Of a DNA stretch of 64,000 nucleotides, positions 1,668 to 34,891 are shown one piece after another. Each line of letters opens with the position of its first letter. Position 1 is the stretch's first letter. The stretch spans positions 148 through 64,147 of the forward strand of contig JADJAL010000031.1 of the NCBI GenBank assembly GCA_016704305.1, written 5' to 3'. This DNA comes from Haliea sp. GTDB lineage: Bacteria > Pseudomonadota > Gammaproteobacteria > Pseudomonadales > Halieaceae. Below the pieces are notes generated by a model. The model was not told where the DNA came from. It worked only from the letters and a program-made list of their open reading frames with translations, and made no database searches. Made by a program: the position numbers and the translations under genes.

Positions 1668-1835
1668 ACATGTGTACCGTTTGCGGGACCGGCGAGTACT
1701 TAATATCCGCAGGTCAAAAGCGGGCACGCAGGATAGCAAAAATCCGCCAAAGTTTAACTAGCGCCCGTGGGGAAATGCCCTGCCCGCCTTTTCGTCCTAT
1801 ACTTCAGTATCTGCATTGCTTTGAGGCTCGAAGTG

Positions 1836-3080: not shown

Positions 3081-3111
3081 ACGAGCGACCCGTGCTATGC
3101 AGGCGCCACGT

Positions 3112-12162: not shown

Positions 12163-12375
12163 AGATCCAATGTCCTGCAATCAGTATGCCGCTAGTGTAG
12201 GGGCTAAAATTGTCATTGTCACAAAAAACGGGTGCGGCTCAGGGGCGCGGCGAGAGTGAGTATCGGGTAGCTGTTTTTGCGCCCGATCCGCTCGCGATAT
12301 GCCCTCGGTTCGGGTAGCACTGTGTTAGCATGTTTTGCTCCGAGAATAGCATTTATAAACCGGCCCCAAGTGACT

Positions 12376-18013: not shown

Positions 18014-18107
18014 CCGATGCCGTTCCGGTTTTGCATCCGGTGTGGACACGGTATAGTAAACGGGAAGTAACCACATCCCCAGACGCGGGGCACTGGAAGA
18101 AACACCT

Positions 18108-18869
18108 ATGGCGGGTAAAGTACGAATCAAGCGCGGTGATGTCTGGGCTGAGCGCCTTAAGGAACATTTGACATCATCCCAGGTCGGCGTCGCCGAGTGG
18201 ATGGAAGAACACACACAGATTATCAAGAGCAACCTCGGCACATTGTCTGGTATGTTGCAGCTCGATGACCAGTTGGCCTACCTCAAACTCTACTCGTTCA
18301 AACCCTTCAAATACAAAATGTCACTCGGCCTGCGCAAGCCGCAACCCTTGCGCGATTTTAATCTCGCGAGTGACCTTGCTGGCAAAGGCATCGCTGTGCC
18401 ACGGCCGCTGGCCTGCCTGGCAGTCGCCGAGGGCATGTTGCTAGTGACCGAGGGCTTGTCAGGCGGCGGCACTTTGGACGAGGTGTGGCGCAGCCAGCCC
18501 GCGGCGCCCGGCGCCGACGCGATGATGCGCGCTGCCGGCGAAACCCTGGCGCAGCTTCATGCAGCGGGTTACACCTACGGTAATTGCCGTTGGGAACACC
18601 TGTTCTGGAATGGCCAACGCGTTTACCTGACAATGCTTGATAGCACCCGCAAAAGCCCACTTGGTGGAATTCACCAGGCGCGGGATCTCGCGCAATTTAC
18701 GGCCAATGCGGAGCAGTTTGTGATTGGCTCGGTACTGTACGAGCAATTTCTTGAAACCTATTTGCAGGGCATCGCCGGCAATCGGCGAGAAGTGGTGGAG
18801 CGGATGATCCGACCGCTTTACCGCTTTCGCGGGCAGCACCTGTCCAGGTACGGACAGCGTCTGGTGTAG
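18108..18869 (+). CDS. Lipopolysaccharide-kinase (Kdo/WaaP/InaA)-like protein with atypical catalytic motifs
   Basis: YLKLY, GIAVPRPLA, LVTEGL, AGETLAQLHAAGY fold signature. The catalytic loop reads YGNCRWEH. Confidence 0.65.
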   Translation: MAGKVRIKRGDVWAERLKEHLTSSQVGVAEWMEEHTQIIKSNLGTLSGMLQLDDQLAYLKLYSFKPFKYKMSLGLRKPQPLRDFNLASDLAGKGIAVPRPLACLAVAEGMLLVTEGLSGGGTLDEVWRSQPAAPGADAMMRAAGETLAQLHAAGYTYGNCRWEHLFWNGQRVYLTMLDSTRKSPLGGIHQARDLAQFTANAEQFVIGSVLYEQFLETYLQGIAGNRREVVERMIRPLYRFRGQHLSRYGQRLV

Positions 18870-18893
18870 CTGGTTATCTCATCGCTGGTCGCA

Positions 18894-19715
18894 TTACGGC
18901 GGCTTTGCTGGCAGTTTGCGCAAAGCGCGGTGGTAGGCTTCCGCCGCAAGAATTTTTCCTTCCATCGGCGATAGATCCCGCATCTGCCGCCGCCACGCTC
19001 GCAAGAAGCGCATACGATCCGTGCGACCGAGAACGGCCAGCGGCAGCGAGTTCATCTGTACCAGGTTGCGCAGCAGTAGCTTTCCCGGGGTCGGAATTCT
19101 TTGCGTGTTGCCCTCGTTGTTGATCAGCGTAAAACGGAACTGGTCCTTCACCAACGCGGCCAGCACATTGTCCGGGCGCAGTTCGCCATGAATAAAGCCG
19201 GTGGCGTGGACTCGCCCAATGAATGTGCCCAGCGCATGGAGCAGTTGTCGCCGCAGTCGCAGCTGTTCTGCATTCCTGCCAGCGAGCGTCTCGCAGAGCC
19301 AGCGTTGAATGCTGTCGCCAGGCGCCGCAACGGTATACAGATACTCTCCTCCGCCCGGAAGTTGCCCCCAGAGCACGTTGTGGGGTGCGTCTATGCCCGC
19401 CTGCAGCAGTGCTTCGGCGTTCAGGCGTGCGCGGGTAGCGCGGCTGCCCTTGACCTGCGCCCGCAGCGCGGCGGCGGGACTGCGCGGCAGGTACTCCTTG
19501 TAATAGAGCTGCAGCGTTGGATTGACGGCGACCCGCGTGGATGCGGAGCTGCTCACTCGCTGCCAGTCATCCGGCAGGTAGTCGCCTGACAACTGCACAG
19601 CCCATTCGCGTAACTGCTCGGCATGAGCGTCGGTGCTGATAGTGAAATTCCTCCGGTAGAACTTCTGGGCGCCAGCATTAGCGCATTCTATGCCGCAAGA
19701 CCGCGCACTCTGCAA
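18894..19715 (-). CDS. Second LPS-kinase-like protein; start uncertain
   Basis: YYKEYLPRS, GIDAPHNVLWG, LGTFIGRVHATGFIHGELRPDNVL, RNLVQMN...RTDRMRFLRAW. Confidence 0.7.
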   Translation of the reverse strand: MQSARSCGIECANAGAQKFYRRNFTISTDAHAEQLREWAVQLSGDYLPDDWQRVSSSASTRVAVNPTLQLYYKEYLPRSPAAALRAQVKGSRATRARLNAEALLQAGIDAPHNVLWGQLPGGGEYLYTVAAPGDSIQRWLCETLAGRNAEQLRLRRQLLHALGTFIGRVHATGFIHGELRPDNVLAALVKDQFRFTLINNEGNTQRIPTPGKLLLRNLVQMNSLPLAVLGRTDRMRFLRAWRRQMRDLSPMEGKILAAEAYHRALRKLPAKPP

Positions 19716-19904
19716 GTTCGCTGTGACAGGCGCACCGCAAGGGGATATGCGGTAGTCACCGGCGCAGCGTGGGGTTATCATGGCCGGCAAAATAAGGTCG
19801 GCCAACCAGGCCGTCGTATCGCACAGTAATGACACCGCTACGATGACCATCACAATGGCAATGACAATGGCCGTGCAACCAGACTTGGCAACGAAGGGGC
19901 GTGT

Positions 19905-20786
19905 TTGAAGCAGAACGTATTGATACTGGGAGCCGGCGGGCAGCTCGGTCGGGAATTGCAGCGCACCGTGCCGGCCGGGGTGGAGAGTATTGCCATGGCG
20001 CGCACGCAACTGGATATCAGCGACGCCAGTGCGGTGGAAGACTGTCTGGCAGCCCTGATGCCGCAGCAGGTCATCAACGCGGCGGCGTATACCGCAGTGG
20101 ATAAAGCCGAGTCCGAACCCGCCGCCGCACATCGCGGCAATGCCGAAGGCCCGGGTGTGCTGGCTGCGGCGTGTGCCCGCCACGGCCTGCGATTTATTCA
20201 TATCTCCACCGATTTCGTATTCGATGGCACGGCGTCCCAGCCCTATCGACCGGAGGCTCCTGCCGCGCCGCTGGGAGAGTACGGACGCAGCAAGCGCGCC
20301 GGTGAAGTGGCGGTGCAAAGCGCGCTGCCGGAAGCGCTTATCCTGCGCACCGGCTGGGTGTACTCAAGTTTTGGCGGCAATTTTGTCAAGACCATGTTGC
20401 GCCTGATGCGCGAGCGGGACGAGTTGGCCGTGGTGACCGATCAGGTCGGCACGCCAACCTGGGCACACGGCCTGGCAGAGGCGGTGTGGGCCGCGGCCGC
20501 GCGGCCGAAGCTGGGCGGCTTTTATCACTGGAGCGATGCCGGCGTGTGCAGCTGGTACGATTTCGCCGTCGCCATTTATGAAGAAGGACTCGCGCAGGGA
20601 CTGCTGACCAAGCCGGTGACGATTCGGCCGATCCCCGCCGCCGAGTATCCCACGCCGGCGCAACGCCCGGCCTACAGTGTATTGGACAAGTCGAGCAGCT
20701 GGCGCGATTTTGCGCTCACGGGCGTCCATTGGCGCCAGCAATTGCGGGCGATGCTCGCGGATTTGAAGGAGCTGGCAGATGCCTAA
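19905..20786 (+). CDS. rfbD: dTDP-4-dehydrorhamnose reductase
   Basis: GAGGQLG, NAAAYTAVDKAE, HISTDFVFDG, YGRSK, DQVGTPT. Confidence 0.96.
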   Translation: MKQNVLILGAGGQLGRELQRTVPAGVESIAMARTQLDISDASAVEDCLAALMPQQVINAAAYTAVDKAESEPAAAHRGNAEGPGVLAAACARHGLRFIHISTDFVFDGTASQPYRPEAPAAPLGEYGRSKRAGEVAVQSALPEALILRTGWVYSSFGGNFVKTMLRLMRERDELAVVTDQVGTPTWAHGLAEAVWAAAARPKLGGFYHWSDAGVCSWYDFAVAIYEEGLAQGLLTKPVTIRPIPAAEYPTPAQRPAYSVLDKSSSWRDFALTGVHWRQQLRAMLADLKELADA

Positions 20787-21846
20787 ATCCCTACTGGTCA
20801 CCGGAGCAGCCGGTTTTATCGGCGCCAACTTTGTGCACTATTGGATGCAACAGCATCCCGACGACAAGGTGGTGGCGTACGACGCACTCACCTATGCCGG
20901 CAACCGCGCCAACCTTGCGGCATTGCAGGACAACCCGAACTTCAGTTTCGTGCACGCGGACATTTGCGATTACGAGCGGGTACTGCAGGCGCTGCGCGAG
21001 CACGGTATCGATACCGTGGTGCACTTTGCCGCGGAGAGCCATGTGGATCGCTCGATTACCGGCCCGGATGCGTTTATCGAAACCAATATCGTCGGCACCC
21101 ACACGCTGCTGAAGGCGGCGCGTGAAGTGTGGCTGTCGAGTGGTGCGCGGCAAGCGCACCGCTTTCACCATGTGTCGACGGACGAGGTCTACGGTTCGCT
21201 TGCTATCGATGCGCCCGGCTTTCACGAGCAGCAGAAATACGAACCCAACTCGCCCTATTCCGCCAGCAAGGCGGCCTCGGACCATCTGGTGCGCGCCTAT
21301 CACCACACCTACGGCCTGCAGGTCACCACCAGCAATTGCTCCAATAACTACGGCCCTTACCACTTTCCGGAAAAACTGATTCCGCTGTGCCTGACCAACA
21401 TCCTGCGCGGACGCCCGCTGCCGGTGTACGGCGACGGCAGCAATATTCGCGACTGGTTGTACGTGGAGGATCACTGCCGCGGTATCGAACTGGTGCTGCT
21501 AAAGGGCGAGGTCGGGGAAACCTACAATATCGGTGGCAACAACGAGTGGAACAACCTCAATATCGTGCATCTTCTGTGCGACCAGATGGATGCGCGCTTT
21601 GCGGCCGAGCCCGCGCTCGCGTCCCGCTTTCCCGATGCGCCGGGCAGCACCGGTCGCAGCGCCCGCGATCTAATCAAATTTGTTGAGGATCGCGCCGGAC
21701 ACGACTGGCGCTACGCGATCGACGCCAGCAGGATCATGGGCGAACTGGGCTACCAGCCGCACGAGAGTTTCGAGACGGGCCTGCAGCGCACGCTGGATTG
21801 GTATCTCTCTAACGAGGAGTGGTGGCGGCCGTTGTTGGTTAAGTAA
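20779..21846 (+). CDS. rfbB: dTDP-glucose 4,6-dehydratase
   Basis: TGAAGFIG, HFAAESHVDRSI, HVSTDEVYG, YSASKA, NCSNNYGP. Confidence 0.97.
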   Translation: MPKSLLVTGAAGFIGANFVHYWMQQHPDDKVVAYDALTYAGNRANLAALQDNPNFSFVHADICDYERVLQALREHGIDTVVHFAAESHVDRSITGPDAFIETNIVGTHTLLKAAREVWLSSGARQAHRFHHVSTDEVYGSLAIDAPGFHEQQKYEPNSPYSASKAASDHLVRAYHHTYGLQVTTSNCSNNYGPYHFPEKLIPLCLTNILRGRPLPVYGDGSNIRDWLYVEDHCRGIELVLLKGEVGETYNIGGNNEWNNLNIVHLLCDQMDARFAAEPALASRFPDAPGSTGRSARDLIKFVEDRAGHDWRYAIDASRIMGELGYQPHESFETGLQRTLDWYLSNEEWWRPLLVK

Positions 21847-21932
21847 TTGCTTCGGGGGATATTTCGGTGCCTGGTTCTCTCATAATTCCGAAGTTCGCCC
21901 GACACTGGCTTTTCAGGTTCGTGCTCGCGATC

Positions 21933-22019
21933 GGCTCAGGTCAGGGAAGCCTTTTCGCCTGCTTCCCCTATGCGGGCCACCCAATACTCGCATGCAAAAA
22001 GGCTTCCCTGACCTGAGCC
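21933..22019. repeat. 23-bp perfect inverted repeat (REP-like hairpin 1) between convergent rfbB and rfbC
   Basis: ggctcaggtcagggaagcctttt (21933-21955) and aaaaggcttccctgacctgagcc (21997-22019). Confidence 0.85.
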
Positions 22020-22070
22020 TCGAACTGTGCCTATCCGAGAGATGAGAGTCCGAGTTTTCGCACGGAAAGA

Positions 22071-22147
22071 GGGCCCGGGTATCGGGTAAGCAAATCGTTC
22101 GCGAGTATCGGGGAAGCGAGCGATTTGCTTACCCGATACCTGGGCCC
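22071..22147. repeat. 27-bp inverted repeat with one mismatch (REP-like hairpin 2)
   Basis: gggcccgggtatcgggtaagcaaatcg (22071-22097) and cgatttgcttacccgatacctgggccc (22121-22147). Confidence 0.85.
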
Positions 22148-22261
22148 GGCGCTCTAGCCCGATTCTCCAACCCGGTTCCCAACAAACGCTTTTTTGTACT
22201 CGACAGCCCAACCGGTGCTGCCGACAAGCGCGATTTTCAAACCCAACAGCCGACCCCGTGC

Positions 22262-22810
22262 TCAATCAAAACGCGGGCAATCGTCCCAGCGGAGCCCCTG
22301 CGAATCTTTGGCAGACAACTGCGGCGTCTCCCCCGGCGGCACCGGCCATTCGATACCCACTGTAGGGTCATCCCAGGCCAGCGACTTTTCACTGGCCGGG
22401 TGGTAAACGTCGGTACACTTGTAGATGAAATCCGCGTAATCAGAGGTGACGTAGAAGCCGTGCGCGAACCCCGGCGGCACCCACAACATGCGCCGGTTGT
22501 CCGCGCTAAGGGTCACGCCATACCACTTCCCGAGCGTCGGGGAGCTCTGGCGCAGGTCCACGGCAACATCGAAAACCTCGCCCGAAGTGACGCGCACCAG
22601 TTTGCCCTGGGTGTGTTCCATCTGGAAATGCAGGCCGCGCAGGATGCCGCGCGCCGAGCGGCTGTGGTTGTCCTGCACAAAATCGAGATCGAATCCCGCT
22701 GTGCGAAAAGTCTCGCGGTTCCAGGTTTCCATAAAGAACCCGCGCTGGTCGCCGAACACCGTGGGTTCCAGCAGGTAGACATCCTTAAGCGGCGTTGCTA
22801 CAAATTTCAT
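22262..22810 (-). CDS. rfbC: dTDP-4-dehydrorhamnose 3,5-epimerase
   Basis: [37 protein letters not shown]. Confidence 0.97.
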
Positions 22811-23706
22811 GCGAAGACCACTCCTTCATCTCTCAACAGGTTCTTGAGGTAGAGACCGTAGCCGCTTTTTTCCAGCGGTTTGGCCAGCGCCAGTAACTCC
22901 TCGGCGCTGATGTAGCCCTTGCGGTAGGCCACTTCCTCGGGGCACGCGATTTTCAAGCCCTGGCGCTCCTCCACCACGCGGATGAAATTGGCGGCGTCGA
23001 GCAGGGAGTTGTGGGTGCCGGTGTCCAGCCATGCGGTGCCCCGGCTCAGCACTTCCACCCGCAGGTCGCCGCGCTCCAGGTAGGCTTTATTCACATCGGT
23101 GATCTCCAGCTCGCCGCGATGCGACGGGCGCACCGCCTTGGCGATCTCGACCACATCGTTGTCGTAAAAGTACAGGCCGGTGACGGCGTAGTGGGAGCGC
23201 GGCTGGGCCGGCTTTTCCTCAATATTTTCGGCCACGCCGTTCTTGTCGAAGCTGACTACCCCGTAGCGCTCCGGGTCCTGCACATAGTAGGCGAAGACGG
23301 AAGCCCCGGTGTCGCGGCTGGCGGCGCTGGTCAGCTTCTGCGAAAAGCCGCCGCCGTAAAAGATGTTATCGCCCAGCACCAGGCTGGCCGGTGATCTGCC
23401 GATGAAGTCTTCCCCGAGGATGAAAGCCTGGGCCAGTCCATCGGGGCTCGGTTGCACGGTGTACTGAATGTTGATGCCCCAGCGGGAGCCGTCGCCGAGC
23501 AGGTCGCTGAACGCGCTCTGGTCGCGCGGCGTGGTGATAATCAATATATCGCGGATACCGGCCAGCATCAGGGTGGCCAGTGGGTAGTAAATCATCGGTT
23601 TGTCGTAAATCGGCATCAACTGTTTGCTGACGGTGCTGGTCAGGGGGTGCAGGCGGGTACCTGACCCACCCGCCAGGATGAGCCCTTTATAGGTATTGGT
23701 TGTCAT
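22807..23706 (-). CDS. rfbA: Glucose-1-phosphate thymidylyltransferase
   Basis: [45 protein letters not shown]. Confidence 0.97.
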
Positions 23707-23917
23707 CGGGAAGCGCTCTGGTTGCAAAGCGAAGGATTATAGCGGCATCTGTGCGAGATTGGCGACAGAGCCGAGCCCGGCCGCAGTCAGGGGTGGATTT
23801 TTGACCAGTAGCTGATTAGAATCTAACCCCTTTTGGTGGGGAGTTTTGGGTAGATCGGTGCCATTCAGTGCATATCGGTCTGACTGAAGCAGCGGCATAA
23901 CCCCTTCCATTCATCCC

Positions 23918-23943
23918 GTTTCGGACAACAGTTTCGGACAACA
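23918..23943 (+). repeat. Exact 13-bp tandem direct repeat (gtttcggacaaca x2) upstream of the GT4 operon
   Basis: Copies at 23918-23930 and 23931-23943. Confidence 0.75.
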
Positions 23944-23976
23944 ACAGAGGACGCCGTTATCTGGCATCTGGGTACA

Positions 23977-25275
23977 GTGCAGGACAAACTGCCACCGATG
24001 ACAGGTGTATCGGGTGCTCCTGCGCTCGCCGTTGCCGTGGAGCAGCCACTGCGTATCGCCCTGCTGGGTTATCGCAGCCAGCCGCACGGCGGTGGTCAGG
24101 GCGTCTATATGCGCTACCTCAGCAAGGCGCTGGTGGATGCGGGTCACACTGTCGACGTGATTTCTGGCCCGCCCTACCCCCACCTCGATCCCCGCGTCCG
24201 CCTGATCACCTTGCCCAGCCTGGATCTGTTTGAGAATGGGCTGGGCTCTCTGCGCCCGCACCACCTGAAGTCCCTGAGCAATATCATCGAATGGCTGAGC
24301 CAGCTGACGGGTGGGTTTGCCGAGCCGCTGACATTCGGGCGCCGAGCGGCGAAGTACCTGCGCCAGCACGGCCACAACTATGATCTAATCCACGACAACC
24401 AGAGCCTCAGTTACGGCATGCTGGAAATCCAGGACATGGGCCTGCCGCTGGTGACGACAGTACATCACCCCATCACCAGCGACCTGCGTATTGCCCTGGC
24501 CGCCGCGCGCACCTGGAAGGAGCGCATGTTCATCCGGCGCTGGCACTCCTTTCTGAAGATGCAGAAAAAAGTCATCAAGCAGTTGCGCCATATTGTCACG
24601 GTGTCCGATTGTTCGCGCCAGGACATTGCCCGGGATTTCGGTTTGCAACCGGCCGGCATCAGCCTGGCGCACAACGGCATCGACATCGACGTGTTCAAGC
24701 CCGTGCCGGGTGTCGAGCGCAATCCGCGCCGGTTGATGGCCACCTGTTCGGCGGATGCGCCGCTCAAGGGTTTGCGTTACCTGCTGCACGCCTACGCCCG
24801 CTTGCTGAAGCGCTATCCGGACCTGGAATTGCTACTGGTCAGCAAGCCCAATCCGGGCGGCAAGACCGAACGCCTCGTGCAGCAACTCGGCCTGGCCGAT
24901 AAAGTGCGCTTCGTCAACGGCATCAGCACTGAGCAGATGGTGCAGTACTATGCCGAGGCGGCCATCGCCGTGGTGCCCTCTGTCTATGAGGGCTTCGGGC
25001 TGCCGGCGGGCGAGGCGATGGCCTGCGGGGTACCAGTGGTGTCCACCGATGGCGGCGCCCTGCCGGAGGTAGTCGGCGATGCCGGCGTGATCGTGCCGGC
25101 GAAGAATGTCGATGCGCTGGTCGGCGCTATAGATGCACTGCTGCGGGACCCGCAACGGCGCGCCGAGCTGGGCGCGCGCGGCAAACAGCGTATCGAGAAG
25201 AATTTCTGCTGGCAGGTCTGTGCGCGGCAGATGACGGCGTATTACCGACAGGTGTTGGCAAATGAAAACGGTTGA
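23977..25275 (+). CDS. GT4 glycosyltransferase, ManT-like (mycobacterial MMP mannosyltransferase type)
   Basis: RIALLGYRSQPHGGGQGVY...SGPPYP.LDPRVRL...PSLDL N-terminus; PSVYEGFGLPAGEAMACG GT4 motif. ManT similarity is recalled, not searched. Confidence 0.85.
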   Translation: MQDKLPPMTGVSGAPALAVAVEQPLRIALLGYRSQPHGGGQGVYMRYLSKALVDAGHTVDVISGPPYPHLDPRVRLITLPSLDLFENGLGSLRPHHLKSLSNIIEWLSQLTGGFAEPLTFGRRAAKYLRQHGHNYDLIHDNQSLSYGMLEIQDMGLPLVTTVHHPITSDLRIALAAARTWKERMFIRRWHSFLKMQKKVIKQLRHIVTVSDCSRQDIARDFGLQPAGISLAHNGIDIDVFKPVPGVERNPRRLMATCSADAPLKGLRYLLHAYARLLKRYPDLELLLVSKPNPGGKTERLVQQLGLADKVRFVNGISTEQMVQYYAEAAIAVVPSVYEGFGLPAGEAMACGVPVVSTDGGALPEVVGDAGVIVPAKNVDALVGAIDALLRDPQRRAELGARGKQRIEKNFCWQVCARQMTAYYRQVLANENG

Positions 25276-25978
25276 TTTCCGGCGCCTGCCGCTGGCTGCG
25301 GGCGACATCGTGCTGGATCTGGGGTGTGGCGAAGGCCGCCACGTCATCAGCGCCTATGTCGAGGCGGATATCCATTCCGTCGGCGTGGACCTGTCGCTCA
25401 AGGACCTGAAAATCACCCGTGAACGCTTTGAACACTTTGCCGAACCCGACAACGACGCCAAATCCTTCGGCCTGTCCTCTGCCAGTGCGCTGAACCTGCC
25501 GTTTGCCGACAACACCTTCGACAAGGTCATTTGCAGCGAGGTGCTGGAGCATATCCCCGACTATCGCGGCGCGCTGCGCGAGATAGAGCGCGTGCTGAAG
25601 CCCGGCGGCCTGTTCTGCGCCAGCGTGCCAAGGCGCTGGCCGGAAAAAATCTGCTGGGCCCTGAGCGAGGGCTATTACCAGGTCCCGGGTGGCCATCTGC
25701 GTATTTTTCGCAGCGACGAGTTGCGCAGTGAAATTGAGTTTCTGGGCTTTACACATTACTACCGTCATTGGGCACACGCCTTGCATGTCCCTTTCTGGTG
25801 GCTGAAGTGCCTGTTCTGGCAGAGCCAGGACACCAACTGGCTGATCAAGCAGTACCACCGCCTGTTGGTGTGGGACCTGATGAAGAATCCGGCGCTGACC
25901 CGGATCCTGGAGAAGAGCATGAACCCGATCATGGGCAAGAGCGTAGTGATGTACTTTCGCAAGCAGGCGGCATCATGA
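25262..25978 (+). CDS. Class I SAM methyltransferase, MeT3-like
   Basis: MKTVDF...VLDLGCGEGRH, ICSEVLEHIPD, GGHLRIF, GKSVVMY. Overlaps the GT4 stop. Confidence 0.85.
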   Translation: MKTVDFRRLPLAAGDIVLDLGCGEGRHVISAYVEADIHSVGVDLSLKDLKITRERFEHFAEPDNDAKSFGLSSASALNLPFADNTFDKVICSEVLEHIPDYRGALREIERVLKPGGLFCASVPRRWPEKICWALSEGYYQVPGGHLRIFRSDELRSEIEFLGFTHYYRHWAHALHVPFWWLKCLFWQSQDTNWLIKQYHRLLVWDLMKNPALTRILEKSMNPIMGKSVVMYFRKQAAS

Positions 25979-27051
25979 GTGGGCTATACCTCAGTCGCGG
26001 ACTGTTTCCGGAAGAGTTCCTGCGCCCCACGGTGGATTTTATTCTCTCGTGTCAACGCCCCAGCGGCGAGATTCCCTGGTTTGAAGGCGGCTACACCGAT
26101 CCCTGGGACCATGTCGAATCCGCCATGGGCCTGTCGATAGGCGGTGAGCTGCGCGCTGCGCGCCGGGCATATGAGTGGTTGGCCGCCCTGCAACTTCCGG
26201 ACGGCAGCTGGTGGGCTTCTTACCGCGGGGAGGAGATCGACAACGCCAATCGGCGTGAGTCCAATTTTGTTGCCTATATTGCGACCGGCGTATGGCACCA
26301 CTACCTGATCAGTGAGGACATGGAATTCCTGCGTGTCATGTGGCCAGTCGTCGACAGGGCGATAGGTTTCGTCCTGTCGCTGCAGTCGGAGCACGGCGAA
26401 ATCGACTGGGCTGTCGACGGGTCAGGGCAGGCCAAAGGCGATGCCCTCGTCACCGGGTGCAGTTCCATCTACAAGAGCCTGGAGTGCGCGCACAACATCG
26501 CCGTCACGCTGGGCGAGGATCGCGCGCGCTGGTTGACGGCGCGCACGCGTCTGGGCAAGGCGCTGCGGCACAAGCCGGAGCGGTTTGATCGCACCTGGGA
26601 GAGCAAATCCCGCTATTCCATGGACTGGTTTTATCCGGTACTGGCAGGGGTATACACCGGCGTCGACGCACGTGCGCGATTGGCGTCGCGCTGGGATGAA
26701 TTCGTGGAGGACAACCTCGGCTGTCGCTGCGAAAAGCAGCAACCGTGGGTGACGATTGCCGAAAGCTGCGAGCTGGTGATGGCGCTGTTGGCGGCCGGCG
26801 ATCACGCGCGTGCGGTAGAGGTCTACAGTTGGTTGCAGCAGTGGCGCACCAGCGACGGCTCTTACTGGACGGGTTACCAACTGGTGGAAGACCTGTTGTG
26901 GCCGGATGAAAGGCCTACCTGGACGGCTGGCGCCATTTTGCTGGCGGCTGACGCCCTCACCAAACACACCGCTGCGTCCGGCCTGTTCTGCAGCGTCACT
27001 CTGCTGGATGAGCACGAGGATGGGCGCGCGCGCCGCATTCTGGTTGACTGA
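25975..27051 (+). CDS. Alpha/alpha-barrel protein (usually labelled prenyltransferase/squalene oxidase repeat), MmpH-hydrolase-like
   Basis: Q.PSGEIPW, DPWDHVESAMGL, ESNFVAYIATGVWHH, RYSMDWFYP, PWVT.AE.CE, YWTG...WP.E..TWT. ATGA coupling to the upstream gene. Confidence 0.7.
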   Translation: MSGLYLSRGLFPEEFLRPTVDFILSCQRPSGEIPWFEGGYTDPWDHVESAMGLSIGGELRAARRAYEWLAALQLPDGSWWASYRGEEIDNANRRESNFVAYIATGVWHHYLISEDMEFLRVMWPVVDRAIGFVLSLQSEHGEIDWAVDGSGQAKGDALVTGCSSIYKSLECAHNIAVTLGEDRARWLTARTRLGKALRHKPERFDRTWESKSRYSMDWFYPVLAGVYTGVDARARLASRWDEFVEDNLGCRCEKQQPWVTIAESCELVMALLAAGDHARAVEVYSWLQQWRTSDGSYWTGYQLVEDLLWPDERPTWTAGAILLAADALTKHTAASGLFCSVTLLDEHEDGRARRILVD

Positions 27052-27149
27052 AGTAGTCCGGCGACGCCGCGCGGTACAACCCCGGTTATAAGTCCGGCTG
27101 CGATCCTGTATACAACCCTGTCTACATCAACAGACGCCGCAAAAACTGC

Positions 27150-28148
27150 ATGCAACCCATCGATACAGTTGTCCCACCTCGTTCACAGTGCGCCATCTTG
27201 TGCACGATCAAGAACGAGGCCACCTACATTTTCGAGCATTACGCCTGGCACAAGCGTATCGGATTCTCCCGGTTCATCTACGTGCATAACGATTGCACCG
27301 ATCAAACCGTGCCAGCCCTTGCCACGCTCGCGGCTCACGACCCACAGGTCACGGCAATTGAGAACTTTGTGCAACCCGGGGATCGTCCACAGGTGTCTGC
27401 TTATGCGCAAGCCCGCGCCCGGATCCTGCCCCAATTGCAGGATTGGTACATCATGGTCGTCGACATCGATGAATTCCTGCTCCTGAAGCAGCACGACAGT
27501 ATCCAGGGCCTGCTCGAGGCGTTCGCTAACCCCCAGGCGATTTCGTTCAACTGGCGCATCTTCGGCTCCAGTGGACAGAACGAGTATGCGGATGACCTGG
27601 TCGTCAGCCGTTTTACCGCCTGCGCCCCGGAACACCACCCGATTAACCGGACGTTTAAATCCATTTGGCGCAACACCCCCCAGGTGCTCAATAACGGCCC
27701 GCATCGGCCCCACTTCCAAACGCCGGACGCAATCCGCTGGGTGTATCCGACAGCCCCGCCGCTGGGCCAGGATATACCGCTGGAGCTTCGCAAGGGGTCC
27801 AGTCCCAGGAAGGCCGACCACGGCCCGTACCTCGACGTAGCCCAGATCAATCACTACGTTGTGAAAAGTCGATCCGAATTCGAGGAGAAGAAAGTCCGCG
27901 GCCGAGGCTGGAAAGCGGGGGGCGAGAGCCAGGGCGCTCGCCACACCAACGCCTTCTTCATCGAATATGATCGCAACGAGGTTGTCGACAATCTTGCGGC
28001 CTCAGTATCGTCCGAGGTCAGGCGGGAGACATTCCTGCTGCGCAGGAAATTCCTTGAGATGCATGGCTGCGATCTGGAATTCATCAGGATGAGCAATTCG
28101 ACGCGACAAGCAGTTACACAGGGTGCCGACCGATCAACCGTGCCGTAG
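27150..28148 (+). CDS. GT2-like glycosyltransferase (Glyco_tranf_2_4 type)
   Basis: IKNEATYIFEHYAWHKRIGF, VVDIDEFL (DxD), NWRIFGSSG, FKSI, AQINHYVVKS.EF. Confidence 0.8.
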   Translation: MQPIDTVVPPRSQCAILCTIKNEATYIFEHYAWHKRIGFSRFIYVHNDCTDQTVPALATLAAHDPQVTAIENFVQPGDRPQVSAYAQARARILPQLQDWYIMVVDIDEFLLLKQHDSIQGLLEAFANPQAISFNWRIFGSSGQNEYADDLVVSRFTACAPEHHPINRTFKSIWRNTPQVLNNGPHRPHFQTPDAIRWVYPTAPPLGQDIPLELRKGSSPRKADHGPYLDVAQINHYVVKSRSEFEEKKVRGRGWKAGGESQGARHTNAFFIEYDRNEVVDNLAASVSSEVRRETFLLRRKFLEMHGCDLEFIRMSNSTRQAVTQGADRSTVP

Positions 28149-28157
28149 CCATACTAT

Positions 28158-28244
28158 GGCTGCAACACCGGGCTACGAATCCCGGCTACGAAATCCTGCT
28201 ACAACATCCTGCTACAACATCCTGCTACAACATCCTGCTGCAAC
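28158..28244 (+). repeat. 13-bp tandem repeat tract (atcctgctacaac x3, one variant copy, degenerate copies)
   Basis: Copies start at 28193, 28206, 28219 and 28232 (variant). They are preceded by ccgggctacgaat and cccggctacgaa. Confidence 0.85.
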
Positions 28245-28861
28245 TACAGCCGGCGCAAAAACCCCAGGCTGTTGACCTGACCGAGATTCTCAAACAAGCC
28301 CGACGCTTGCGCCAGGCGATAAATCGCGTAGGGCGCCTGCCCGCCTTTGTGGGCATCGTCGAACAGATCGTGTATCGCCAGCACGCCGCCACGCATCAGG
28401 TGTGCACTCCAGCAGCGGTAGTCGGTGAGTGCGGCAGCGAGACTGTGCCCGCCATCGATAAACACCATCGCCAGTGGCGTCTGCCAATGCCGGGCGGCCG
28501 CCTCCGACCCCGCGACGACGGGCACGACAACCTCGTCGAGCCCCGCGCGGCGAATGTTGCGGCGAAATTCCCGGAAGCTATCCATGATGCCCTCGCCGGC
28601 ATCGTACAGCGCGGGGTCGTGGAAGAATTCCCCCAACTGGTGTTCCTCGGAGCCGCGGTGGTGATCCAGCGCAAACACCGTGCTGTTGTTGGCGCGGCAC
28701 GCCAGCCCCAGATAAATGGTTGATTTGCCGCAATAGCTGCCGATTTCCAGTACTGGGCCGAGCGCGCTGGCTTGCAGCGCGTGTTGATAGAGCGCCTGCG
28801 CTTCGTCTTCCGCCAGAAAACCTTTAATGGTATCGATATCGGCGGGCAGGTCGGGAATCAT
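28244..28861 (-). CDS. Class I SAM methyltransferase (Methyltransf_24), MeT1-like
   Basis: GF..EDE...LY, EIGSYCGKST, DHHRGSEEHQ, FIDGGH, HDLF....GGQAPY.IY. These motifs match my recollection of mycobacterial MeT1. Confidence 0.85.
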   Translation of the reverse strand: MIPDLPADIDTIKGFLAEDEAQALYQHALQASALGPVLEIGSYCGKSTIYLGLACRANNSTVFALDHHRGSEEHQLGEFFHDPALYDAGEGIMDSFREFRRNIRRAGLDEVVVPVVAGSEAAARHWQTPLAMVFIDGGHSLAAALTDYRCWSAHLMRGGVLAIHDLFDDAHKGGQAPYAIYRLAQASGLFENLGQVNSLGFLRRL

Positions 28862-28933
28862 TGCGTCATGGTCTCAGCGCAGGCGATGGCTGACAACCCG
28901 AGAGTCGGTCACCGCGCCCGCGCCCGGGTTCTG

Positions 28934-30356
28934 CTATTTAGGTGCTGTAACGGAAGTGGCCGTTGGCGCCGTCGGAGGCACGAGGAAAGAATCCAGCCTG
29001 AGCACGTCCTCCGGACTGAGCAATCCGGCCCGTTCCTTCAGGCGCATCAGGTTGAGCACATAATCGTAGCGGCTGTTGGCGTAATCGCGTTCCGCCTGGA
29101 ACAGGATATTCTGCGCGTTGAGCACATCGACCACGTTGCGGGTGCCCACTTCATAGCCGGCCTGGGTCGCGTCCAGCGAGCTTCTGGAGGAAATGATGCT
29201 CTGCCTGCGCGCGGCGATTCGCGACACATCGCTCAGCACGGTCATATGCAGCGAGCGGGTGCTGGTTACCGTGTTGCGCGTCAGGTTGATCAGTTCCTCG
29301 CGCGAGGCGTTGTATTCCTGGGCCGATTTACGCCGGTTGGCGCTGATCGCGCCGCCGCTGAACAGCGGCACGCTGACCTGGACCTGCCACATGTTTTCTT
29401 CGGAATTGCTGTCAGGTGGGTTGACGAAAGGCGAATCAGGCACTGATTCGACGCTACCGCTGACATCGAAGTTTGAGTACTCATAGCCGCCGGTGACTTT
29501 GGGGCATGTTCCATGCGGAAAGACTTGGCGTTCTGGCGTGACGCCTCCTCACGATACCGCGCCGCTTGCAGCTCGAAGTTGTTTGCCAGCGAGAAATCAA
29601 CCCAGGCGGCGCGATCAATCGGGTCCGGCGGCAGGATTTTAAAATCATCGACGAGTACGTTGAGGTTTGACTGTGGCTGGCCTGTCAGTACGGAGAGGCG
29701 CTCGAGAGCGACGGATACATTGTTTTCATCGACGATGCGGTTGACCTGTGACAGATCCCTCGCAGCCTGGGCCTCGTAGACATCGGTAATGGCGATCAGG
29801 CCGACTTCAAAACGCTGCTGGGTCTGCTCCAGTTGGCGTTCGAAAGCGCGCTCCTGCGCCTGGGACGCAGCCAGGTTGTCCTGGGCGCGCAGTACCAGCA
29901 GGTAGGCTTCCACCACCCGCACGATCAGATTTTGCTGGTTGGAGGCAAAGGTCGCCTCTGCTTCCTTGGTGACTTCCTTGCCGGATTGAAAGCTGAACCA
30001 TGCTGACAGGTCAAACAGGGACTGACTGAGCGACATCACATAGCCATCGGTATCGGTATTGAGGTTCGTGGCTGCCTGGCTCAGACGAGGTTGCCATTGA
30101 TATCTTCAACGATGCTTATCGCATCAGTATCGCCATCCGAGTGTTGGTAGGAGTAAGCAGTTGCTACCTGCGGCAGCAGCGCTGACCGCGCAAGATTCTC
30201 GGTTTCGCGCCTGGCCAGATAAACAGCTTCTTCCGCTTTTATCTGCGCGTCGTTCTCCAGCGCCAATTCATAAATGTCGCGCAGCGAGTCAGCCTGCAAA
30301 CTGACACATAAGAGGGAGAGTGTCAGCGACGAAAGCGCGACAAGCAGATTTTTCAT
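28934..30356 (-). CDS. tolC: TolC-family outer membrane protein; frameshifts near 30084 and 29502
   Basis: DSLRDIYELALEND, LSQSLFD, FEVGLIAITDV, YEVGTRNVVDVLNAQ across three frames. Position next to yqiB-cpdA-parE fits. Confidence 0.88.
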
Positions 30357-30571
30357 GCAATAATCCCCAGGGGAGTCGTGGCGGTCCAGTTGGGCAGCAG
30401 TTTAACAGCGTCTCGTCTGTGATGCATACATCGAAACGGCAATGAAAAGGTGCAGTCGCCGGTGGATTGTGACATCTTAGGCAACAGGTTTGCGGTGGTC
30501 CACTGGCGCTATCTGCCGGTTCTCACGCAATTTTTTATCGCCATGAAAAGGCTCAAATCCCGGAACCGGTT

Positions 30572-31033
30572 TTGTACAAGCTGACCAGAAAGCCATTCAA
30601 ACTTGACCTTACAGCGCTGCATGCGATCTGTGATGCAAACTACGCCCGTCTCTTGCGGCTATTCCCGGCATACGAAAACTGTAACTCGCGGGAATTGCTG
30701 GTCGGCTCCGCGAGAGTGCAACTGGAAGTAGTGGAGCGCTGCCGCTATACCACGATATTTCACCTGCGGCAGCAGCGCGCTGAATCGCGCTGGCTCGGTC
30801 AGTTGCGCGTGGAGGTGCGCGCCTATCACGACGTGCGCATGCTGGAAGTCATGGCCTTTCAGTCCGCCCGACAGGTGGCGCCGCGCTACCAGTATCCCAA
30901 TTCCGCCATGTTTGCCCAGGATGAAAAGTACCAGCAGAATCTGTTTCTCGCGGATTGGCTGGAACACTGCCTGCAAAACGGGCGCGTTGCGCTAGATCCT
31001 GGTGCGTCCCTAACGGACTCCCGATCCGCTTAG
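30572..31033 (+). CDS. DUF1249 (YqiB-like) protein
   Basis: CDANYARLLRL, ERCRYTT, VRAYHD...EV, YQYPN..M...DEK.Q.N.FL..WL. Confidence 0.85.
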   Translation: MYKLTRKPFKLDLTALHAICDANYARLLRLFPAYENCNSRELLVGSARVQLEVVERCRYTTIFHLRQQRAESRWLGQLRVEVRAYHDVRMLEVMAFQSARQVAPRYQYPNSAMFAQDEKYQQNLFLADWLEHCLQNGRVALDPGASLTDSRSA

Positions 31034-31886: not shown

Positions 31887-31959
31887 CTCGCCTTGCGCGG
31901 CGCTCGTTGTACAATGTGCCCCGCCGCAACCCCTGCGCAGGACACGAAAACACAACGCA

Positions 31960-33848
<1,889 letters not shown>

Positions 33849-33910: not shown

Positions 33911-33964
33911 TCGCGTCTGTCATTGACGCGATGCAATATGCCGCCTATAGTCAGGCATATTGCA
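33911..33964. promoter_or_regulatory. Two adjacent palindromes upstream of the toxin-antitoxin operon; probable autoregulatory operator
   Basis: tcgcgtc-N7-gacgcga (33911-33931) and a perfect 11-bp inverted repeat tgcaatatgcc-N11-ggcatattgca (33932-33964). Confidence 0.6.
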
Positions 33965-33977
33965 GAGGAAAGTATCC

Positions 33978-34445
33978 ATGGGTGTCACCGCAAATTTATA
34001 CAAACCCGACCTTGAGGCGCATGAGACGGCCCTGGTTCGCGCGATGCGCCGGGTCAGCGAGATTACGGGCATGCCTATCCAGGACACCCTGGATGAGATC
34101 CGCCTGATACAAGCCGGTGTCCAGCCCGTTCTGCTGGAGAGTCTCAAGCAGTTTGGTTTCAGCCCGTCCGAGTCCCATTGGATCATCAAGCCCCGCACGC
34201 TCGCGCACAGAAAAAGCAGGAAGGAACTCCTGACGCAGGAAGAAACCGGGCGCTGGCTGCGTGCCATCAAGATTCTCGCCCTGGCCATCGAGGTGTTTGG
34301 CAACCAGGACAAGGCCAGTGAGTGGCTGCATAAATCGCGCTCCCGTTTCGGGGGGCATTCCGCGCTGGATATCATGCAAAACGAACCCGGCGCGCAACTG
34401 GTTGAGGAAACCCTGAACCAGATTGATTCCGGCTACTTTGCGTGA
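33978..34445 (+). CDS. Xre/MbcA/ParS (DUF2384) antitoxin
   Basis: AIEVFGNQDKASEWL......FGG..ALD.......G..LVEE.L.QI..GYF C-terminus. GTGA overlap with the toxin. Confidence 0.9.
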   Translation: MGVTANLYKPDLEAHETALVRAMRRVSEITGMPIQDTLDEIRLIQAGVQPVLLESLKQFGFSPSESHWIIKPRTLAHRKSRKELLTQEETGRWLRAIKILALAIEVFGNQDKASEWLHKSRSRFGGHSALDIMQNEPGAQLVEETLNQIDSGYFA

Positions 34446-34891
34446 AGTTATGGCGCGTCAGCAATTATGCTGACCTGCAAGGAGTTGGCGGCCTGAAGAC
34501 CGCCGCCCGTTGGCACAACAAAGGTATCCCGGTGGTCTATCTCGCTGAAAGTCCGGCGCTGGCGATGCTGGAAATCCTGGTGCATTTCGATATGGAGCCC
34601 GATGAGGTTCCTGACCAATACCAGCTGCTGGAAGTGGAATACGATGGCCGCAAGGGCATGTCTCGCCTGGATGAATCCGCCCTTCCCGCCAACTGGCGTG
34701 CCAATATTCCTTTGACGCGGGCATTTGGCGACAAGTGGTTGACGGGATTTTCCAGTGCGGTTTTAAGGGTGCCTTCAGTCATCGTCCCCCACAGCTACAA
34801 CTACCTTCTGAACCCCAGGCACCCTGCCGCCTCCGCGGCCCAAATAGTCGCGGTACACCAACACCCTTTTGATTCGCGCCTGGTGCAGTAG
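34442..34891 (+). CDS. RES-domain NAD+ phosphorylase toxin
   Basis: LWR, ARWH..G.PVVYLAES.ALAMLE.LVH, LRVPS.IVP...NYLLNP.HP (R, E and S residues present). Confidence 0.92.
   Translation: MKLWRVSNYADLQGVGGLKTAARWHNKGIPVVYLAESPALAMLEILVHFDMEPDEVPDQYQLLEVEYDGRKGMSRLDESALPANWRANIPLTRAFGDKWLTGFSSAVLRVPSVIVPHSYNYLLNPRHPAASAAQIVAVHQHPFDSRLVQ

Follow-up and report, generated by a model that had tools for sequence, protein, structure and literature searches.

Mycobacteria use four genes to make methylmannose polysaccharide (MMP), a methylated polymer of mannose to which fatty acyl chains bind; Ripoll-Rozada 2019 is a further source on this gene cluster. Similar genes in Haliea sp., a marine or wastewater gammaproteobacterium of the family Halieaceae, raise the question of whether a Gram-negative organism carries the same module and what that module would make. 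We examined this in the window, the whole 64,000-nucleotide stretch of DNA that was analysed. We conclude that this Halieaceae bacterium probably has here a resident, functional orthologue of the module by which mycobacteria make MMP.

Organization of the locus

The MMP-type gene cluster spans positions 23977-28861, with manT, meT3, mmpH and a GT92-like gene in one direction followed by meT1 in the opposite one (Table 1). The meT3 and GT4 genes overlap by 14 nt, from the meT3 ATG to the GT4 TGA at 25273-25275, and the meT3/mmpH junction is an ATGA stop/start overlap; the sequence-only reading had described these three genes as coupled, and their stop and start codons do overlap at the positions it gave. 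It had also placed a second methyltransferase 1.2 kb downstream, and this is found at 28244-28861, its translation holding DHHRGSEEHQ, FIDGGH and GGQAP. The gap between mmpH and meT1 (1.19 kb) is occupied by the GT92-like gene. The GT4 gene starts at a GTG in the window and is called from the ATG in related contigs.

Table 1. Features of the MMP-type cluster, in window coordinates
Feature	Position	Strand	Remarks
manT-like GT4 glycosyltransferase	23977..25275	+	432 aa from GTG 23977; 425 aa from ATG 23998
pMeT3-like class I SAM methyltransferase	25262..25978	+	238 aa
mmpH-like (alpha/alpha)6-barrel hydrolase	25975..27051	+	358 aa
GT-A, GT92-like glycosyltransferase, fifth gene	27150..28148	+	332 aa
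13-nt tandem repeat, GCTACAACATCCT x 4.6	28185..28244	.	TRF score 99
meT1-like Methyltransf_24 methyltransferase	28244..28861	-	205 aa

A gammaproteobacterial host, also claimed earlier, agrees with the closest homologues (86-90% amino acid identity) and the syntenic loci, which come from Halioglobus and Haliea genomes. In Halieaceae the module lies among lipopolysaccharide (LPS) genes: rfbBDAC, two Kdo-kinase-like genes and tolC flank it, relatives also have waaA and hldE, and rfbBDAC stands directly upstream, in its own transcription units and in the other orientation. The neighbours of the mycobacterial cluster are instead TetR and P450 genes. GDP-mannose synthesis genes were found neither in the 64 kb window nor, at 88 loci, within 8 kb of the module. 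Transmembrane segments and signal peptides are absent from all five cluster proteins, which, judged from their sequences, are soluble.

The four-gene account was right in its genes and coordinates but missed the fifth gene, the minus-strand position of meT1, the repeat and the wide distribution described below. The fifth protein scores 51 bits with Pfam Glyco_tranf_2_4 (cut-off 27.5) and 21 bits with GT92 (cut-off 23). Its AF2 model (pLDDT 89) has as top Foldseek match poplar GalS1, a GT92 enzyme (8d3t, E 2.5e-9, TM 0.54), with which it has in common the GT-A fold and a DxD motif, although sequence identity is only 12%. The motif D105-x-D107-E108 is invariant. In four related metagenome contigs and one 98%-identical contig the gene is consistently placed between mmpH and meT1, and it is absent at all 80 loci examined (the best 80 GTDB species matches); it is lineage-specific, confined to this subclade. 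Its dN/dS is 0.18-0.29, and metatranscriptome contigs were found spanning manT-meT3-mmpH but none covering this gene. It may decorate the glycan, or be unrelated to it. Only a short spacer separates the GT92-like gene from the convergent meT1, and the tandem repeat is located there.

Relationship to the mycobacterial enzymes

The cluster proteins were compared with solved structures by phmmer against the PDB, and with the MMP locus of Mycolicibacterium agri (M. agri). E-values against the specific MMP enzymes were 1e-49 to 1e-110, and those against the next-best generic family members 1e-14 to 1e-30; on these scores the matches to MMP enzymes are far beyond chance. The four genes are orthologues of ManT, MeT3, MmpH and MeT1, as the sequence-only reading had proposed from their motifs, three being matched by solved structures and the fourth by M. 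agri pMeT3. A reciprocal search, which that reading had proposed, gave the same answer: by tblastn against the whole window, the four mycobacterial proteins return these four genes only. Scores with NCBIfam models stay below cut-off for all four.

The GT4 protein (Pfam Glycos_transf_1 / Glyco_transf_4) matches M. hassiacum ManT (7qsg, E 2e-110, residues 23-428; runner-up 3.5e-30) and shares 46% identity with M. agri ManT. The residues checked in ManT and MmpH were those given in PMC9883506. All the ManT catalytic residues are kept, including the Gly-loop G and E313-G-F-x-L (G15, H142, K240, E313, G314, F315, L317 and E321), and the same positions are invariant across 79 proteobacterial homologues except L317 (69/79). 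The window protein has an N-terminal extension of about 17-24 residues relative to mycobacterial ManT, and Thr and Ile replace D293 and L291. Asp293 is the proposed contact to the guanine N2 of GDP-Man (PMC9883506), and the donor specificity of the GT4 protein is not secured, since this residue is Thr here and position 293 is variable among proteobacterial homologues. The product is a predicted alpha-(1->4)-mannosyltransferase, elongating methylmannose oligomers.

The barrel protein has MmpH as its only significant solved-structure match (7qsj, E 1.9e-100; runner-up 0.006) and is 51% identical to the M. hassiacum enzyme. Every mapped catalytic and subsite residue, whether probed experimentally or defined by structure, is kept: D47/W49/D50/N101/F102/T163 of MmpH correspond to D42/W44/D45/N97/F98/T160 in the window, and M215/Y219/E262/E265/W315 to M216/Y220/E263/E266/W316. 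Among 84 proteobacterial homologues, a minority differ at D50 or F102. We predict an MMP endo-alpha-(1->4)-mannosidase that turns mature polymer into primers. The earlier suggestion that a "prenyltransferase" label hides the module holds for the NCBI name, carried by both the Halieaceae homologue and true mycobacterial MmpH, and for the missing NCBIfam call, but not for the JGI automatic annotation, in which some of the Halieaceae homologues are already labelled "MMP endo-(1,4)-3-O-methyl-alpha-D-mannosidase".

The MeT3-like protein (domains Methyltransf_11/25/31) is 45% identical to the M. agri pMeT3 orthologue over its full length (E 1e-67), whereas the top generic PDB methyltransferase reaches only 4e-14, over residues 9-119. 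A C-terminal H..H.PFWWLKC / GKS region is common to the window and M. agri proteins and is lacking in generic methyltransferases. The N-terminal domain of a natural MeT3-MmpH fusion, P0314, is 44% identical to full-length window MeT3, and a second natural fusion, P0352, has the same methyltransferase plus MmpH-like architecture; these fusions indicate that the two activities are functionally linked. The product is a predicted 3-O-methyltransferase of mannose units, and pMeT3 is putative even in mycobacteria (PMC9883506).

For the MeT1-like protein, M. hassiacum MeT1 is the sole sequence match in the PDB (6g7d/6g80/6h40, E 2.9e-49, residues 8-202), and identity to M. agri MeT1 is 44%. The motifs G.YCGKS, DHH.GSEEHQ.G, FIDGGH, IHD and GGQAP are at least 85-97% conserved in 76 sequences from both phyla. 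The protein is a predicted 1-O-methyltransferase capping the reducing end.

The characterised mycobacterial clusters are MHAS_04402-04405 of M. hassiacum and MSMEG_6481-6484 of M. smegmatis (Maranha 2023, PMC9883506). The mycobacterial and Halieaceae systems have the four protein families in common, at 44-51% identity, and both consist of soluble proteins with no linked exporter; in M. agri the order is likewise manT, meT3, mmpH and convergent meT1, with overlapping reading frames. The window differs by its GT92-like insertion.

Conservation, transcription and distribution

All four MMP-type genes are intact, and dN/dS of 0.02-0.08 shows strong purifying selection; relative to a 98%-identical strain, synonymous and non-synonymous changes number 26 and 2 in manT and 18 and 0 in mmpH. 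The manT-meT3-mmpH stretch is covered by metatranscriptome contigs from three studies and four runs in all, of which two are biofilter runs belonging to the same study, one is from wastewater and one from an unspecified metagenome, and single contigs cross both the manT/meT3 and the meT3/mmpH junctions.

The module is present in the best 80 GTDB species matches, all Proteobacteria or other non-actinobacteria, among them Halieaceae, Spongiibacteraceae, Microbulbifer, SAR86 and Parvibaculum. Carriers in culture include Halioglobus sp. Uisw_031, Pseudohalioglobus lutimaris HF004, Seongchinamella sediminis and Microbulbifer okhotskensis. The order manT, meT3, mmpH is kept in all informative loci among these 80, and meT1 is in the flank of 68, convergent in most of them. 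The only families conserved across all loci are the four MMP-type genes; no flippase, ABC transporter or ligase is among them. Adjacency to rfb is limited to Halieaceae, and the LPS context is missing outside that family. Old residence rather than recent transfer is indicated, since GC and GC3 of the cluster equal the host values, sequence identity follows taxonomy, and the proteobacterial lineages all stand at about the same distance from M. agri (41-53%).

The predicted product and its alternatives

By analogy with the "partially conservative replication" of MMP demonstrated in M. hassiacum and M. smegmatis we infer the donor sugar, the structure and location of the polymer and its lipid-binding role. 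The ManT-like enzyme would extend alpha-(1->4)-mannooligosaccharide primers, with GDP-mannose as the most likely donor, and the co-translated pMeT3-like enzyme would methylate O-3 of the new mannoses. The MmpH-like enzyme would cleave mature polymer at internal sites, giving tetra- to octamers that serve as new primers, and the MeT1-like enzyme would methylate the free anomeric 1-OH of fragments without a methyl aglycon. The GT92-like, inverting-type enzyme of this subclade might, speculatively, add a further sugar. Since all five proteins are soluble and the module has no linked exporter, we expect it to yield a methylated mannan that is amphipathic, stays free in the cytoplasm and can sequester long acyl chains (acyl-CoA).

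It is possible, though unlikely, that the same families make a chemically different methylated glycan, to which MMP is only the nearest relative, through another hexose or deoxyhexose donor (for example dTDP-rhamnose from rfb), another length or linkage, or a GT92-added sugar. The variable Asp293 position, the adjacent rfbBDAC, the embedded glycosyltransferase and identities of only 44-51% to characterised enzymes would fit this. However, the mannosyl-binding loop E313-G314-F315-x-L317 is kept (E, G and F in all 79 homologues), as is every MmpH subsite residue; Spongiibacteraceae, Microbulbifer, SAR86 and Parvibaculum carry the module without rfb, the rfb genes form separate units, and a GT92-like gene missing from 80 species representatives lies outside the core chemistry.

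Less likely still is a role in building or trimming an envelope mannan (O-antigen or capsule) rather than a cytoplasmic lipid chaperone. The LPS genes around the module in Halieaceae point that way, and O-antigens with consecutive 3-O-MeMan occur in Gram-negatives (PMC9883506). Precedents for a methylated envelope mannan are the O-chain of Oligotropha carboxidovorans, a homopolymer of 3-O-methylmannose, and the E. coli O8 mannan with its methyl cap. These Gram-negative systems also combine GT4 enzymes and GDP-Man in mannose polymers methylated at O-3 (in E. coli O8/O9a terminally, by WbdD), but their glycans are alpha-1,2/1,3-linked, built on undecaprenyl phosphate, exported by an ABC transporter and ligated to lipid A-core, and they lack MmpH and MeT1 counterparts. 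None of this assembly and export machinery is linked to the module: it has no conserved partner of the Wzm/Wzt, Wzx/Wzy, WecA-type initiating transferase or ligase kind, and its proteins lack signal peptides and transmembrane segments. Furthermore, 1-O-methylation, as deduced from MeT1 function, requires a free anomeric carbon, incompatible with a lipid-linked intermediate; a polymer-recycling endo-hydrolase has no role in O-antigen assembly; and carriers outside Halieaceae lack the LPS context. It is highly improbable that the genes have no current function, whether as a remnant obtained by horizontal transfer from actinobacteria or as an artefact of annotation or assembly. Until now the family was known from Actinobacteria only, and the window's assembly has frameshifts in tolC (two), parE and apparently also ilvD and tfpB, but the four genes are intact and constrained, are found independently in a 98%-identical MEGAHIT metagenome contig and in complete genomes of cultured strains, and have host-like GC, taxonomy-following divergence and detected transcripts.

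The favoured cytoplasmic MMP-like product would resemble mycobacterial 6-O-methylglucose lipopolysaccharide (MGLP), also a cytoplasmic polymethylated polysaccharide, a helical, methylated alpha-1,4 glycan of the same physico-chemical logic that is proposed to sequester acyl-CoA; its sugar, enzymes (GpgS, OctT and others) and gene set are unrelated, and none of its genes is in the window. Beyond mycobacteria, the acetylated MMP (AMMP) of Streptomyces griseus shows that the scaffold can carry decoration specific to a lineage. The ManT of this species (53% identity to that of M. hassiacum, PMC9883506) is about as distant as the window GT4; the host is still an actinobacterium, and the decoration is acylation, not a possible extra glycosylation. 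To our knowledge, mycolic acids are not known in the Gram-negative Halieaceae, nor is FAS-I, the system MMP is said to modulate, known there or in other Proteobacteria, so that the physiological rationale of MMP is not directly transferable. The literature searched contained no report of MMP outside Actinobacteria, in line with the earlier statement that MMP is known only from actinomycetes, and no chemical evidence of methylated mannan in Halieaceae or other proteobacteria. The module itself extends well beyond this organism, to many other Gram-negative lineages, and MMP, supposedly actinobacterial, is therefore probably far more widespread.

Gene content and identity of the module

Homologues of the four mycobacterial genes for methylmannose polysaccharide (MMP), encoding the GT4 mannosyltransferase ManT, the methyltransferases pMeT3 and MeT1 and the hydrolase MmpH, lie together in the window with a fifth, GT92-like glycosyltransferase gene. 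The sequence-only reading had described coupled GT4, SAM methyltransferase and barrel genes with a second methyltransferase gene 1.2 kb away, and this was confirmed by the ORF listing and by reading of the gene junctions; its genes and motifs stood, but it had missed that the last gene lies on the minus strand and that a fifth gene is embedded in the cluster. The module is preceded by rfbD, rfbB, rfbC and rfbA, and followed by tolC, a DUF1249 gene, cpdA and parE. The Kdo-kinase-like pair beyond the rfb genes belongs to the group of LPS-core genes found around the module in Halieaceae. Promoter and terminator counts in 23600-30600 were not above those of shuffled sequence, and Rfam and tRNA scans across the window found no RNA elements.

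Features of the Haliea sp. window in and around the module (L001, a metagenome contig closely matching the window)
Feature	Position	Strand	Remark
ilvD	306-1739	-	Model positions 1-420 of 616 only, then a stop; looks frameshifted at about nt 410
TfpB/PilB-like ATPase gene	12277-13902	+	Model positions 5-457 of 584 only; looks frameshifted at about nt 13760
Two adjacent divergent Kdo-kinase-like genes	18108-19598		Between ilvE and the rfb genes; PF06293 in matching L001
14-nt insertion relative to L001	21969-21983		Intergenic between rfbB and rfbC
manT-like GT4 glycosyltransferase gene	23977-25275	+	ORF listing; related contigs call the start at ATG 23998
Class I SAM methyltransferase gene (pMeT3-like, 238 aa)	25262-25978	+	ATG 14 nt within the GT4 gene
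mmpH-like alpha/alpha-barrel gene	25975-27051	+	ATGA stop/start overlap with the methyltransferase gene
GT2_4/GT92-like glycosyltransferase gene (332 aa)	27150-28148	+	Pfam; fills the 1.2 kb between the barrel gene and meT1
13-nt tandem repeat GCTACAACATCCT	28185-28244		4.6 copies, 93% match; in the spacer that separates meT1 from the convergent GT92-like gene
meT1-like Methyltransf_24 gene (205 aa)	28244-28861	-	Motifs DHHRGSEEHQ, FIDGGH, GGQAP; convergent with the other genes
tolC	28934-30377	-	Broken over three frames (-3, -2, -1)
parE (topoisomerase IV subunit B)	31948-33845	+	Frame change at about 33123-33130 relative to Halioglobus orthologues
Xre-type antitoxin gene	33960-34445		RES/Xre (ParS-like) toxin-antitoxin family
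Overlapping downstream ORF	34442-34891		Candidate RES toxin
tRNA 2-selenouridine synthase gene mnmH	46626-47738		First of a selenium-utilisation pair
Oxidoreductase-SelD fusion gene	47722-49965		Second of the pair

In a search of solved structures, three of the proteins had M. hassiacum enzymes as their best matches. The window GT4 protein matched 7qsg (E 2e-110, residues 23-428), which is ManT as solved by Maranha et al. 2023 but carries the generic deposited name 'D-inositol 3-phosphate glycosyltransferase'; the runner-up gave 3.5e-30, and PimA and MshA about 1e-23. For the barrel protein the best match was 7qsj (E 1.9e-100), deposited as 'Methylmannose polysaccharide hydrolase (MmpH)', with a runner-up at 0.006, and the sole structure matches of the 205-aa methyltransferase were the MeT1 entries 6g7d, 6g80 and 6h40 (E 2.9e-49, residues 8-202 of 205). 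pMeT3 is without a solved structure, and the 238-aa methyltransferase found generic methyltransferases only, the best at 4e-14 over the Rossmann core. Pfam assigned generic GT4 and methyltransferase domains, and to the barrel only sub-threshold Prenyltrans and GH95, while no NCBIfam model reached its cut-off for any of the five proteins.

A mycobacterial comparison was provided by the Mycolicibacterium agri locus L082, reached via an MmpH homologue, in which manT (411 aa), meT3 (243 aa), mmpH (356 aa) and a convergent meT1 (223 aa) have overlapping reading frames. BLASTP of the window proteins against their M. agri counterparts gave 46% identity for ManT (E 4e-120), 45% over the full length of MeT3 (238/243 residues, E 1e-67), 50% for MmpH (E 4e-108) and 44% for MeT1 (E 6e-51). 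The MeT3 match extends over the family-specific C-terminal half (H..H.PFWWLKC, GKS), which is absent from generic methyltransferases. The reciprocal check against mycobacterial enzymes that the sequence-only reading had suggested was run with the four M. agri proteins, and reverse tblastn against the whole 64 kb window returned exactly the four module genes and nothing more. All four MMP genes are present as specific homologues, with E-values of 1e-49 to 1e-120, and the proposed motif match to the four enzymes is borne out by both the structure-database matches and the M. agri BLASTP. The order manT-meT3-mmpH with convergent meT1 is the same in L082 and in the window, where one inserted gene parts meT1 from mmpH.

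The family assignments extend to individual residues, numbered here after the M. hassiacum proteins. In MmpH the catalytic base is E262, the candidate acids are D47 and D50, and the subsites are lined by W49, N101, F102, T163, M215, Y219, E265 and W315 (PMC9883506). Every one of these is kept in the window protein, as D42, W44, D45, N97, F98, T160, M216, Y220, E263, E266 and W316. Across 84 proteobacterial sequences eight of the columns are invariant and N101 is kept in 83/84; D50 is Asn in 7/84, and F102 is Tyr in 10/84 and another residue in 2/84. The GT-B/GT4 signature of ManT, comprising the Gly-loop G15, H142, K240, E313, E321 and the mannosyl loop G314-F315-x-L317, is likewise kept in the window and is invariant in 79 proteobacterial homologues, save for L317 (Leu in 69/79). 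For MeT1 the comparison is at motif level only, and G.YCGKS, DHH.GSEEHQ.G, FIDGGH, IHD and GGQAP are 85-97% or more conserved in 76 sequences from both phyla.

Distribution, inheritance and expression

Relatives were found in at least 591 species when one genome per GTDB species was scanned, and the best 80 of these, all non-actinobacterial, were analyzed. They include the Halieaceae (Gammaproteobacteria, order Cellvibrionales) Halioglobus, Haliea, Pseudohalioglobus lutimaris, Seongchinamella sediminis, Congregibacter and Luminiphilus, the Spongiibacteraceae Zhongshania aliphaticivorans and Spongiibacter marinus, and also Simiduia, Pseudomaricurvus hydrocarbonicus, several Microbulbifer, the BD1-7 clade, SAR86 and Ca. 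Azotimanducaceae, together with the alphaproteobacterial Parvibaculum and one Thermodesulfobacteriota MAG. When the window proteins were searched against these 80 loci by tblastn, manT was found in 76/80, meT3 in 79/80, mmpH in 80/80 and meT1, within the flank, in 68/80. Gene order is kept across them, and meT1 usually starts a few hundred bases past mmpH on the opposite strand. About half of the 12 loci without meT1 stop at a contig edge. Clear cases of a missing meT1 are confined to Spongiibacteraceae and one Cellvibrionaceae locus, where either meT1 lies elsewhere in the genome or the glycan has no methyl aglycon. Five loci from Zhongshania, Spongiibacter, other Spongiibacteraceae and Cellvibrionaceae (L035, L038, L040, L052, L055) carry manT-meT3-mmpH, with meT1 missing for several kb downstream.

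All-against-all clustering of flanking ORFs left the four module genes as the only families common to all lineages. Other neighbours are lineage-specific: LPS-core genes in Halieaceae, to which adjacency to rfb is restricted among the best 80 loci, and an SDR, a LysR and a PNPOx-like gene in another group. This clustering found no exporter, acyl-CoA enzyme or WS/DGAT as a conserved partner, and the module is self-contained. GDP-mannose genes are absent from the 64 kb window, and an RmlA-based search found no ManC-like protein within 8 kb of any of 88 loci. In M. agri manT is immediately preceded by a PNPOx-like gene (L082, 3423-3878), and a PNPOx/PdxH-like ORF lies upstream of the module in an uncultured Pseudomonadales group (L051-L062, about 3100-3850), which may be coincidence.

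A protein library reduced to 50%-identity clusters holds 291 MmpH-family clusters at E <= 1e-30. Two of these, represented by P0314 (590 aa) and P0352 (606 aa), are natural fusions of an N-terminal MeT3-like methyltransferase with a C-terminal MmpH-like barrel, and provide independent evidence that methyltransferase and hydrolase act in one pathway. A further library protein, P0386, joins the N-terminal half of MmpH to a C-terminal GT4 domain and could be either a genuine fusion or an assembly error.

Identity to the window drops with taxonomic distance among the best 80 loci, from 65-90% in Halieaceae and about 70% in Spongiibacteraceae to about 60% in Microbulbifer and Cellvibrionaceae and about 50% in SAR86 and Alphaproteobacteria, and the M. 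agri proteins are about equidistant (41-53%) from every proteobacterial lineage. This pattern argues for long residence rather than recent transfer. The GC and GC3 of the module equal the window average, and dN/dS against more distant relatives is 0.03-0.08 for the four genes, level with the neighbouring rfb genes. Recent horizontal transfer from Actinobacteria was rejected on the grounds of composition, selection and divergence that follows taxonomy.

The species is found in wastewater, activated-sludge, biofilter, sediment and aquaculture metagenomes. Metatranscriptome contigs of 95-99% identity from four runs in three studies, which indicate presence only and may include DNA carry-over, cover manT, meT3 and mmpH, with single contigs crossing both gene junctions (25074-25509, 25775-26202, 25679-26100 and 25749-26066). 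One such contig covers meT1, and none covers the GT92-like gene.

The embedded fifth gene

The GT92-like gene is missing from all 80 of the best 80 species representatives, and a search of 5.8 billion proteins gave only about ten close homologues of its product, with distant ones (37% identity or less) in Janthinobacterium, Sphingomonas and Methylorubrum. Every recoverable contig with a close homologue (L084-L088) has the gene between mmpH and meT1, split in one of them. Its dN/dS of 0.18-0.29 indicates continuing constraint, though much weaker than on the genes around it. The protein scores 51.3 bits for PF13704 (cut-off 27.5) and 21.0 for PF01697 (cut-off 23), and a sequence search of the PDB returned nothing. 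Its AlphaFold model (pLDDT 89) is closest in fold to the GT92 galactan synthase GalS1 (E 2.5e-9, TM 0.54), and a D-x-D-E motif is invariant. The product is accordingly modelled as a soluble GT-A glycosyltransferase, which might decorate the glycan or might be a passenger from the adjacent LPS region.

Proposed function and implications

The best-supported reading, from orthology, is that the module would work as in mycobacteria (PMC9883506). The ManT-like enzyme would extend alpha-1,4 oligomannoside primers, the pMeT3-like enzyme would methylate O-3, the MmpH-like enzyme would cleave the mature polymer into primers, and the MeT1-like enzyme would cap free reducing ends. We consider it unlikely that the product is instead a chemically different methylated glycan. 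What speaks for such a product lies in ManT, where the backbone of L291 and the side chain of D293 have been proposed as guanine-N2 contacts to GDP-Man that 'could be maintained' (PMC9883506). These contacts are the sole family features looked for and not found: L291 is Ile and D293 is Thr in the window, and the D293 column varies among the proteobacterial homologues (T 45, H 9, A 7, D 5, others), leaving room for a donor other than GDP-Man. The 3-O-methyltransferase is putative in mycobacteria as well (PMC9883506). Against a chemically different glycan stand the conserved mannosyl loop of ManT, the complete set of MmpH subsite residues and the occurrence of the four genes without rfb neighbours outside Halieaceae.

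An envelope polymer, to which the LPS-core surroundings in Halieaceae might point, is less probable still. The five proteins have neither signal peptides nor transmembrane segments, no exporter is linked to the module, and a reducing-end methyltransferase needs an anomeric carbon that is free; taken together, these features favour a free glycan in the cytoplasm over a lipid-linked polymer of the envelope. That the module is a non-functional remnant or an artefact appears very improbable, even in a window that looks like an indel-prone assembly rather than one of gene decay. The break in tolC, which is intact in close relatives (473-474 aa), is probably an assembly indel; relative to the window, L001 is one base longer near 29504, and a single base is inserted at 29500 in a metatranscriptome contig. 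As parE is essential and yet shifted, indel errors in the assembly are indicated rather than a pseudogene. The five genes of the module region are intact and corroborated by independent contigs, and in the comparison with L001, which is 98% identical to window 17982-29565, synonymous and non-synonymous differences number 26/2 in ManT, 4/0 in MeT3 and 18/0 in MmpH.

MMP and its sister molecule MGLP have for decades been regarded as peculiar to mycobacteria and a few actinomycetes, and what they do in the cell, whether FAS-I modulation, acyl-CoA buffering or cold adaptation, is unsettled. In the literature covered, MMP is described from mycobacteria and Streptomyces griseus only, in agreement with the earlier statement that it is reported from actinomycetes alone, and the cluster has been searched for in actinobacterial genomes only. 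Within an incomplete coverage of the literature we found no link of methylmannose polysaccharides to Proteobacteria, Halieaceae, Cellvibrionales or SAR86, and a search linking 3-O-methylmannose to marine bacteria gave nothing relevant. What is new here is that the four families recur in the same architecture in a phylum where they were not expected, joined by a lineage-specific fifth gene. An annotation problem is exposed as well: the NCBI pipeline calls MmpH 'prenyltransferase' in both phyla, as it does the closest homologues (77-89% identity, from Halioglobus, Haliea, Seongchinamella and Halieaceae). This name had been expected to hide the family, and in part it does, but the concealment is not full; a few JGI entries auto-named 'MMP endo-(1,4)-3-O-methyl-alpha-D-mannosidase' show that similarity-based pipelines had already reached these proteins.

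The carrier Proteobacteria have, to our knowledge, no FAS-I and use FAS-II only, and conservation of the MMP module in such bacteria would argue against FAS-I regulation as its core function. More tentatively, we regard it as possible, rather than likely, that polymethylated mannans are an old and widespread cytoplasmic acyl-chain chaperone of FAS-II-only Gram-negatives (Cellvibrionales families, SAR86, Parvibaculum) and not an actinobacterial speciality, the polymer being also glycosylated in this Halieaceae subclade by the embedded GT92-like enzyme. Many such carriers are lipid or hydrocarbon degraders. On this reading, FAS-I regulation could not be what MMP is chiefly for.

If MMP synthesis in these organisms is real, its taxonomic restriction falls, and abundant marine and wastewater Proteobacteria would be included among the producers, as a bacterial source of methylated sugars not considered before. 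Glycosylation by the GT92-like enzyme would make the polysaccharide a new polymethylated chemotype. Halioglobus, Pseudohalioglobus, Seongchinamella, Microbulbifer, Simiduia and Pseudomaricurvus would offer fast-growing, non-pathogenic cultured models for the role of the polymer, and the ancestral function of MMP would probably be independent of FAS-I and of mycolic-acid envelopes.
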